Below, piece after piece: positions 18,453 through 19,822 of a stretch of 30,818 nt of DNA. A model generated the notes under the pieces. That model worked only from the letters and a program-made list of their open reading frames with translations. It did not search any database and had not been told where the DNA came from. The DNA is taken from IMG/VR virus record IMGVR_UViG_2565956711_000013, positions 1 to 30,818 of that record. One strand, given 5' to 3'. Origin of the DNA: a virus. Its lineage: Duplodnaviria; Heunggongvirae; Uroviricota; Caudoviricetes. The translations under genes were made by a program, and so were the position numbers. Numbering within the stretch: position 1 is the stretch's first letter; each line of letters starts with the position of its first letter.

Positions 18453-19671
18453 TGGTTTTTCCCTCATCATTTTTTGGGGGCTTAAAATCTCCTGCCGGGT
18501 TAGCAGCATTCACGCTTACCAGCATCTCATCCAGCCCTTCAACCGGATTCATATCCTCGAATGCGCGGGCCTCATTACGGCTCATCCATCCATCGGTAAT
18601 AGCGAAGTGATAGAATTGCGCGCGCTCCTGCGGAGTTCCGCGTAAAAGCCCCGTCAGATTGAACCTGACGTAATACCCGGCAGCTAACTCAGCGCGGGTA
18701 AACAAGCGACGGTTAAGCTCCTGCTCCCAGTTCGTCACCCACGGCATCATCGTGTAGCGGACAAACTGAATCGCCTGCGCAGAAATATTGGAGAAGGTGG
18801 CTTTTTCGAGGTCATTAATCATGTGCGCAGGAATATTGAAAATACCGGCAATCATTGAACGGTTCAGTTTCATCATGTCAATGATCTGAGCGTCAACTGG
18901 CGACACAGTCAGTGCCTTGTAATCCAGATCGGCTGGCAGCAGCATGGTTTTGTTTTCCTGGCTGCGTAACGCCTGCGATGCCTTCTGCCACTGATCTTTA
19001 AGCCAGCCCCAGCTGTCCTTATTGAGTCCGCTTTTAACGGATACTATCCCCGCCGGACGGGCATTACCGCTGAAGAAGCTTTCTGTGTATTTCTGACCGC
19101 TCATCCCCATGCCTATTGTTTCGGCATGTTGCATAATCGGACTCAGCCCCATCTTCTGATTATTACCCAGCGCACGGATGTGGATCATATCGTCGGGGCT
19201 GATCGCAAACGCCCCATATTCGTTGTACAAACCGTAGGTGTATCGGCCACCAGTATTCATCAGCGTCGTTTCCCACGGCATACAGCAATCCAGGGATATG
19301 ACTTCACCGCGACGATTACGTTTCACCCAGGTATACCCATTCCCCCAGCCAAGGATGTGACGTTGCTTCAGTTCGCGCCATTTGTAACTGGTTTGCCAGG
19401 TATTGGGTTCATCATGAACCAGATAAAACGCCGGATGATCGCGTGCGGGCTCAACCTTCCCATTGTGCCTGCGCATAACATGCAACGGCATCTGGGCAAG
19501 GCTGGAAGACAGGACATAGATACAGGAATACACCGCAGCCAGTTTCATCGCAGTTTCAGGACTGACATAAACGTCTGCCCGGAACAGCCCATCAGTATCA
19601 ACGGCATCCCCGGTTATCGGGGTGGAAGGATTCTCCAGTGATTTACTTCTGAACAGAGCATCAAGCAGCAC
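18445..19671 (-). CDS. Portal protein, HK97 family
   Basis: 408 aa; GTG start at 19669-19671 with an AAGGGGGA RBS; downstream of the large terminase. Confidence 0.85.
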   Translation of the reverse strand: MLLDALFRSKSLENPSTPITGDAVDTDGLFRADVYVSPETAMKLAAVYSCIYVLSSSLAQMPLHVMRRHNGKVEPARDHPAFYLVHDEPNTWQTSYKWRELKQRHILGWGNGYTWVKRNRRGEVISLDCCMPWETTLMNTGGRYTYGLYNEYGAFAISPDDMIHIRALGNNQKMGLSPIMQHAETIGMGMSGQKYTESFFSGNARPAGIVSVKSGLNKDSWGWLKDQWQKASQALRSQENKTMLLPADLDYKALTVSPVDAQIIDMMKLNRSMIAGIFNIPAHMINDLEKATFSNISAQAIQFVRYTMMPWVTNWEQELNRRLFTRAELAAGYYVRFNLTGLLRGTPQERAQFYHFAITDGWMSRNEARAFEDMNPVEGLDEMLVSVNAANPAGDFKPPKNDEGKTNE

Positions 19672-19822
19672 GCGTCCCCCTTCTGGCCATAGCCAGTGCG
19701 CCCACCAGCAGTAAACCGCCGGACAGCATCAGAGCCGGAGCCATACCAAACTGCAGGTAAACCCCGCACGTAAGCAGGCCAAAACCAGCCAGCCCGATAA
19801 CATCAGCAATTAGTGATTTCAT
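19661..19822 (-). CDS. Possible small two-TM membrane protein (~53 aa) between the terminase and portal genes
   Basis: My own translation: ATG 19820-19822 overlaps the terL stop (ATGA); [53 protein letters not shown]; stop at 19661-19663 overlapping the portal start; not in the ORF track. Confidence 0.3.

Follow-up and report, generated by a model that had tools for sequence, protein, structure and literature searches.

A small predicted membrane protein gene at the portal start of an SfV-like Escherichia coli prophage and its probable relationship to YmfR

The described gene that comes closest to the one examined here is ymfR of the e14 prophage of Escherichia coli K-12, which in the literature searched has only been listed among the e14 genes or followed as mRNA, its transcript increasing together with those of the other e14 genes on exposure to an SOS-inducing drug (PMC10012262). 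YmfR defines family 502 of PHROGs, labeled 'membrane protein', and gp03 of phage SfI is the protein that the Prokaryotic Genome Annotation Pipeline (PGAP) calls YmfR. Of 5426 complete E. coli genomes, 1357 carry YmfR-type genes. A further system suited to comparison is that of phage T4, in which the viral chaperone gp40 helps the gp20 portal initiator to assemble on the membrane, with the initiator contacting YidC (PMC9958956). The present study concerns a small gene, here called the mini-gene, located between the large terminase gene (terL) and the portal gene in a stretch of 30,818 nucleotides (the window, meaning the whole of the DNA analyzed; positions 1 to 30,818 of IMG/VR record IMGVR_UViG_2565956711_000013). 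The window represents an SfV-like E. coli prophage inserted beside dusA and an integrase gene.

From the sequence and a listing of open reading frames (ORFs), the mini-gene was located at positions 19661–19822 on the minus strand, with 53 codons followed by a TGA stop. It spans the 147-nt gap between terL (19819–21552, minus strand) and the gene for a portal protein of the PF04860/HK97 type (18445–19671, minus strand, with a GTG start at 19671–19669), both of these being placed by the ORF listing and by PGAP annotation. The ATG of the mini-gene (19822–19820) has two bases in common with the TGA of terL (19821–19819), forming an ATGA overlap on the minus strand at 19819–19822, and its last 11 nt overlap the GTG start of the portal gene. 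A preliminary description, made from the sequence alone, had given the same coordinates, gap and overlaps, and all of these proved correct when compared with the ORF listing, the strand being minus.

Comparative evidence indicates that the mini-gene is almost certainly a real protein-coding gene under purifying selection. A scan of IMG/VR gave 228 contigs encoding relatives, 80 of which were analyzed together with eight annotated loci and the window, making 89 loci in total. The frame was open at 52–53 codons in every one of them, and the 66 distinct DNA alleles differed only by substitutions or by one whole codon. For the 64 ungapped alleles, the pooled Nei-Gojobori ratio of nonsynonymous to synonymous substitution rates (dN/dS) was 0.265, falling to 0.199 over codons 2–42, with the reservation, which counts against this evidence, that the pairs compared are phylogenetically non-independent. 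In the five other frames the same alleles gave ratios of 0.46–2.0, an unambiguous difference, and stops were present in alternative frames in 37–64 of the 64 alleles; the values obtained for comparison were 0.136 for the C-terminus of terL and 0.074 for the N-terminus of the portal. Entropy at codon positions one, two and three was 0.54, 0.29 and 1.08, respectively. This third-position excess is gone in codons 43–53, where entropy is flat (0.43/0.47/0.52) because the same stretch holds the Shine-Dalgarno (SD) sequence and start of the portal gene. The check set beforehand in the preliminary description, namely conservation of the frame and of synonymous-site variation, was thus run with a positive outcome: the frame is kept at all 89 loci, selection is purifying and variation is concentrated at third positions.

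The hydrophobicity of the product points in the same direction. Among random open ORFs of 53 codons drawn with the local composition, only about 2 in 10,000 attain its grand average of hydropathy (GRAVY) of 1.16 (P~2e-4). This result, with the kept frame and purifying selection across the 89 loci, makes it extremely improbable that the ORF is no gene, whether it lies open by chance in a non-coding spacer or forms part of a longer portal protein as in the record of phage SfV, even if openness across the gap is compatible with such an origin (P~0.13 for 49 codons in a fixed frame under local first-order composition, so that openness alone is weak evidence). In the SfV record (U82619) the small ORF is indeed not annotated and the portal call begins 48 nt earlier; in the window, however, a stop lying 19 codons before the GTG bars any such extension of the portal frame, which has no earlier start codon, and a portal GTG or ATG with an SD sequence at −11 is conserved in all loci. 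The caveat of the preliminary description that high GC content can create spurious ORFs was found not to apply, as the window has a GC content of 51.9% and the mini-gene has a GC content of 0.568 with 0.537 at third codon positions, close to the third-position values of its neighbors (overall and third-position GC of 0.543 and 0.644 for terL, 0.513 and 0.579 for the portal gene).

One sequence in the representative protein library, P0041 (131 aa), has residues 1–40 of the mini-protein at its start and thereafter follows the portal frame, which is probably the result of an indel or assembly error. A programmed frameshift giving a mini-protein–portal fusion, an idea prompted by this sequence, was considered and rejected, given that all 64 alleles contain a portal-frame stop inside the ORF.

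The mini-gene is already annotated and catalogued, and as such is already known. It had been thought unannotated in the preliminary description, which did not hold, with current RefSeq and PHROGs (family 7105) both listing it: in an E. coli genome 100% identical to the window, PGAP places a CDS at exactly these coordinates (WP_023277407.1, 'hypothetical protein'), and the same small CDS is annotated in other E. coli genomes. It is also annotated in phages Edwardsiella EPP-1, Salmonella F1055, Morganella IME1369_02 and E. coli vB_EcoS-733R5, and is left out of some records that are older or were annotated by their authors, such as those of SfV U82619 and Klebsiella phage 1 LV-2017, with the ORF intact in both.

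A number of gene starts at this junction appear to require correction. In SfV U82619 (2392–2440, corresponding to 19672–19719 of the window) the portal is called from a GTG 48 nt upstream of the conserved start preceded by an SD sequence; the window counterpart of this extension lacks a start codon and contains a stop, and the SfV portal start is probably mis-annotated. In Escherichia phage vB_EcoS-733R4 (2530–2691) the annotated mini-gene of 46 aa begins at an internal ATG, with a GTG start in a GTGA overlap on the terL stop restoring the 53 aa typical of the family (VKQLITDMTG…). In SfI (NC_027339, 2201–2327) the portal is annotated from 2327, homology to the window portal beginning at 2201, the end of ymfR. 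The portal start called by PGAP in E. coli touches ymfR (1802), and the SfI start has probably been called about 125 nt too late. Apart from these corrections to phage records, the practical yield of the analysis is that the gap between terL and the portal gene should not be taken for a regulatory spacer.

Overlap of the mini-gene start with the stop of a long upstream ORF was seen at all 89 loci, as ATGA in 86 and GTGA in three. The mini-gene was found to lack an SD sequence of its own, the 18 nt upstream averaging −0.9 kcal/mol for the anti-SD duplex compared with −2.8 kcal/mol inside terL. With no SD sequence and an ATG overlapping the terL stop, translation in this clade would be carried out only by ribosomes that have just finished terL, and the mini-gene is thus predicted to depend on termination-reinitiation. 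Judging from this arrangement, its product should be no more abundant than that of terL and should be made only in lytic growth. A scan for promoters and terminators flanking the mini-gene gave counts at or below the shuffle expectation, with no sigma-70-like promoter on the coding strand, and an Rfam search over 19300–20200 gave nothing credible.

The portal gene has a strong SD sequence, AGAAGGGGG (19676–19684, minus strand), which lies inside codons 47–49 of the mini-gene and 4 nt before the portal GTG. In all loci this element is conserved as AGGGGG or AGGAGG and is contained, with the GTG or ATG, in the last seven codons of the mini-gene; its duplex energy is −10.8 kcal/mol in the window and −10.9 kcal/mol on average across loci. 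It is very unlikely that the ORF serves only as a translated spacer with a functionless peptide, relaying ribosomes from terL to the portal or exposing the portal SD sequence. Its place in a coupling chain, between an xTGA overlap upstream and the portal SD sequence and start in its 3′ end, is what such a role would entail, yet the strength of the portal's own SD sequence argues against it. Selection moreover acts on the amino acid sequence (dN/dS 0.2), clusters less than 50% identical still share four glycines and an acidic residue, and the protein signature is still present in the YmfR branch and in a Chlorobiaceae locus, both of which are uncoupled from terL.

The idea that the nascent protein tethers late mRNA to the membrane during its translation was also rejected. 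A protein of 53 residues is released before its helices leave the ribosome, and the mini-protein is too short for this.

To describe the protein itself, a profile search was run against 1.84 billion representative proteins with a threshold of E≤1e-3. It returned 161 homolog clusters at 50% identity, nearly all of 47–60 aa, and an alignment was made of 109 of them. In this alignment, G13, G20, G26 and G35 are conserved at 91–100%, position 7 is Asp in 90 and Glu in eight of the 109 sequences, aromatic residues occupy positions 22 and 25, position 24 is the sole polar mid-position, and Lys and Arg are concentrated at position 2 and at positions 47–51. No match to the mini-protein was found in Pfam or NCBIfam.

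The mini-protein is predicted with good confidence to form a helical hairpin in the inner membrane, with both termini in the cytoplasm (N-in/C-in) and a turn at the invariant G26. The topology follows from the presence of Lys and Arg at both ends by the positive-inside rule. The first transmembrane (TM) helix is predicted at codons 4–23 (19754–19813, minus strand), with conserved D7, G10, G13, L17, G20, Y22 and L23. It is followed by a predicted periplasmic turn at codons 24–28, Q-F-G-M-A (19739–19753, minus strand), which contains G26 and an aromatic belt and is placed by conservation and by the break at residue 26 in the AlphaFold2 model. The second TM helix is predicted at codons 29–46 (19685–19738, minus strand), with L31, the invariant G35, L38, A42 and A46, and the predicted basic cytoplasmic tail, RRGTRAA, at codons 47–53 (19664–19684, minus strand) is dual-coded with the SD sequence and start of the portal gene. 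Conserved positions were seen to pair with an index sum of about 55 (G20–G35, L17–L38, G13–A42 and D7–R48). This pattern suggests an antiparallel hairpin packed through a conserved Gly/Ala small-residue face (G13–A42, L17–L38, G20–G35), possibly with a D7–R48 salt bridge between the helices.

AlphaFold2, when run with 54 diverse sequences, gave helices at residues 2–25 and 27–51 with a break at G26, a mean predicted local distance difference test (pLDDT) score of 85 and a predicted template modeling (pTM) score of 0.55. An earlier result with 18 close sequences, now superseded by the 54-sequence run, was a single uninterrupted straight helix and speaks against the hairpin. The two Gly/Ala-rich hydrophobic helices proposed in the preliminary description were supported as a prediction by the GRAVY value, the conservation pattern and this break. 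A search of PDB sequences gave only matches with E>0.1, to unrelated transmembrane helices, and Foldseek against the PDB gave no match with E≤0.001.

The mini-protein belongs to PHROG 7105, which it matched with E=2.4e-22 and 79.5 bits, residues 1–52 aligning with positions 1–52 of the 52-position profile. All signature positions of this family are present in the window protein, namely D7, G10, G13, G20, [YW]22-L23, [FY]25-G26, G35 and the basic C-terminus. The match to PHROG 502 was weak (E=4.1e-5), with true YmfR scoring 1.5e-27 against the same family. Comparison of PHROG 7105 with the YmfR family by hhalign gave a probability of 94.6% and E=6.5e-8 with the signature residues aligned, and gp3 of Burkholderia phage phi644-2 matches both PHROG 7105 and PHROG 502. 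The evidence that the two families form one superfamily is good but not conclusive, because transmembrane composition inflates profile–profile scores.

YmfR and SfI gp03 resemble the mini-protein in having about 60 aa and two hydrophobic helices, in being encoded between terL and a PF04860 portal gene and touching the portal start, and in the aligned signature G..G......G.[YW]L.[FY], a Gly in the middle of the second helix and a basic residue. They differ in that the aligned identity is only about 26% and that the turn of YmfR is Pro-Pro in place of the invariant Gly. YmfR also has a longer acidic/Gly C-terminal tail, and its gene has its own SD sequence and follows terL after an 11-nt gap. 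The window protein, named only 'hypothetical protein' by PGAP, is a superfamily-level relative of YmfR and not a YmfR orthologue.

The mini-gene abuts the portal gene in the 89 close loci, and at least nine genera of Enterobacterales have close relatives of it. Ralstonia phage Dina and 'Synechococcus phage' Ssp-JY37 also carry clear homologs at the terL–portal junction, and all seven remote members examined, 30–46% identical to the window protein, lie directly against a PF04860 portal gene. Small two-helix genes occupy the same position in Vibrio phage K233, in phi644-2 (gp3) and in SfI (gp03), with portals 36, 34 and 27% identical, respectively, the last being the identity between the portal of YmfR and that of the window. 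In a Chlorobiaceae prophage, which is one of the seven remote members, five unrelated genes separate the mini-gene from terL with the 11-nt overlap with the portal start being retained, and the protease is of the S49 and not the S78 type. The superfamily was found in phages and prophages of Proteobacteria along with this one Chlorobiaceae example, and the carriers found so far all infect diderm bacteria. Portals beside genes of the PHROG 7105 type share an N-terminal motif, M-L-L-D-x-L-F-x-S…L-E-N-P..P-L-T-G, which HK97 does not have.

It should also be noted that five separate mini-gene loci are present in one chromosome of Symbiopectobacterium purcellii (NZ_CP189882), suggesting multiple related prophages or remnants. 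In the Chlorobiaceae metagenome-assembled genome (JAAXWQ010000003, 1825–3900), the five genes before the mini-gene/portal pair had no Pfam matches, and the S49 protease is ClpP-like.

When the window was compared with SfI by blastn, the small terminase gene (terS) and terL matched at 96.3% identity between 21833 and 19880, and past 19880 there was no further similarity. This breakpoint lies inside terL about 60 nt before its stop, so the exchange block consists of the last ~20 codons of terL (19819–19880, minus strand), the mini-gene, the portal gene and the remaining head genes. In blocks of the SfV type the small gene is a PHROG 7105 member, and in those of the SfI/e14 type it encodes YmfR. 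The break in similarity at this point also explains why no more than 257 of 1342 E. coli records matched the query over its full length. The large terminase of lambda and of T3 binds the prohead/portal through its extreme C-terminus, and for this reason the breakpoint would appear to respect a co-adapted unit of terL tail and portal. The location of the mini-gene inside this block agrees with a portal-related role and is suggestive of it. In the literature searched, there is no record of a superfamily shared with YmfR, of the invariable adjacency to the portal gene or of the co-travel with the terL tail and portal.

Taken together, the analysis tentatively favors, at somewhat less than an even chance, a function tied to portal/prohead assembly or packaging at the inner membrane, with the mini-protein as a low-abundance, non-universal accessory. 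Ribosomes finishing terL would make a low level of mini-protein during lytic growth, the hairpin would insert in the inner membrane with both termini cytoplasmic, and the protein may there tether or nucleate the portal ring. Such a factor would be of help but not indispensable everywhere, given that the gene is missing from HK97-type phages of other portal lineages. A more specific form, that the superfamily is the dedicated membrane partner of one HK97-type portal lineage, whose Gly-zipper hairpin oligomerizes and so tethers or nucleates the portal dodecamer, is offered as a speculation that is itself rather unlikely. Contact with the portal would in that case perhaps be made through the conserved portal N-terminus, M-L-L-D-x-L-F…LENP.

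Several observations weigh against a portal-related function. The mini-protein has almost no residues outside the membrane, which leaves a very small surface for contacting a soluble portal. HK97 has no mini-gene, its terL and portal genes overlapping directly (its portal is 23–26% identical to those of carriers), and no two-helix ORF or profile match was found upstream of the portal in Pseudomonas phi2, Rhizobium RHph_Y3_56_1, Moraxella Mcat1, Bacillus F16Ba, Streptococcus YS199, Pasteurella Pmp8 and an Stx2c phage. From its absence in these eight sampled phages, whose PF04860 portals are more distant, the gene is lineage-specific and no general requirement of PF04860 portals. A hitchhiker, like any other gene lying between the terL tail and the portal, would segregate with both, and the synteny and breakpoint are therefore suggestive and not proof. 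In the literature searched, no functional study was found of the mini-gene, YmfR or small membrane proteins encoded between terL and portal. The TerI packaging inhibitor of Listeria (preprint) was considered and set aside as an unrelated protein encoded elsewhere.

The freedom of many phages with PF04860 portals to do without the gene would suit a membrane effector unrelated to the portal and merely inherited with the terL–portal junction, for example a superinfection-exclusion protein or blocker of DNA entry, a membrane-depolarizing or host-takeover peptide, or a pinholin/antiholin-type modulator of lysis timing. This, the main alternative, is considered possible, if on the unlikely side. The sister family 502 is filed by PHROGs under 'moron, auxiliary metabolic gene and host takeover', and the junction is a recurrent insertion site, taking a Phd/Doc toxin–antitoxin pair in YS199, five genes in the Chlorobiaceae prophage and as many as 40 ORFs in phages of Microbacterium (PMC7302621). 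The mini-gene, however, has none of the usual features of a moron, with no promoter or terminator of its own at its flanks, an overlap with both neighbors and a base composition that is not distinct and matches that of the neighbors; lacking its own promoter, terminator and SD sequence, it would not be expressible from a repressed prophage. No match at E≤1 was given by PADLOC for either the mini-protein or YmfR. A role as an effector is also at odds with the position at the portal start, which is kept across portals 27–60% identical even where the gene is uncoupled from terL.

The resemblance to class II holins in the predicted two-helix N-in/C-in form and the Gly-rich first helix would fit a function in lysis timing, but the prophage already has a lysis cassette with a holin, an endolysin and a spanin pair (the i-spanin flagged as incomplete), the expected abundance of the mini-protein is low and so the opposite of that of a holin, and none of the remote loci examined had a family member in a lysis cassette. 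As a separate observation, the portal of the Gram-positive phage YS199, which carries its toxin–antitoxin pair at 1429–2054, is 33% identical to that of the window.

In the window, the order of genes is a lambdoid Q, the lysis cassette, HNH, terS (P27 family), terL, the mini-gene and the portal gene, followed by an S78 protease, an HK97-type capsid protein and a Mu-like contractile tail. The lysis cassette (22554–23902) encodes a lambda-family holin, a GH24 endolysin and Rz/Rz1-type spanins. Within it, at 22554–23103, the DUF2570 (Rz-like i-spanin) gene is flagged by PGAP as incomplete with the C-terminus missing, the embedded Rz1-like LysC being called intact, and from the incomplete i-spanin the prophage may be spanin-defective. 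The tail-fiber end of the prophage (3072–4819) looks degraded, containing a 'capsid protein' fragment of 36 aa, a recombinase pseudogene interrupted by an internal stop, and stfP in truncated form.

Two systems outside the family invite comparison. Class II holins are N-in/C-in proteins with two TM helices, a Gly/Ala-rich first helix and a basic cytoplasmic C-terminal tail. In its predicted two helices and N-in/C-in topology, in the Gly/Ala-rich first of these helices and in its basic tail, the mini-protein is like these holins and pinholins (e.g., S21-68 of phage 21). It differs from them in being about 15–20 residues shorter, in having no dual-start motif, and in being encoded in the head operon some 2.7 kb from the lysis cassette, by a gene that has no SD sequence, depends on terL reinitiation and is probably expressed at a low level. 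Were the mini-protein to be a hitchhiking membrane effector, it would add one more to the small membrane proteins of phages.

The portal of T4 is of another family, and genes 40 and 20 are not neighbors. The likeness drawn here to gp40 is one of function only, with no sequence or structural relationship being claimed, and the PDB sequence search and fold search returned no phage chaperone. In this functional sense, gp40 is a phage factor at the inner membrane that aids the portal ring (PMC9958956), and the mini-protein is a predicted membrane protein linked to the portal. If the mini-protein does aid portal/prohead assembly at the membrane, an idea specific to T4 would be extended to a very common phage type and a 'y-gene' of E. 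coli K-12 would gain a function. If it is furthermore a dedicated membrane partner of the portal, prohead assembly and/or packaging in widespread temperate phages would start at the membrane, as in T4.

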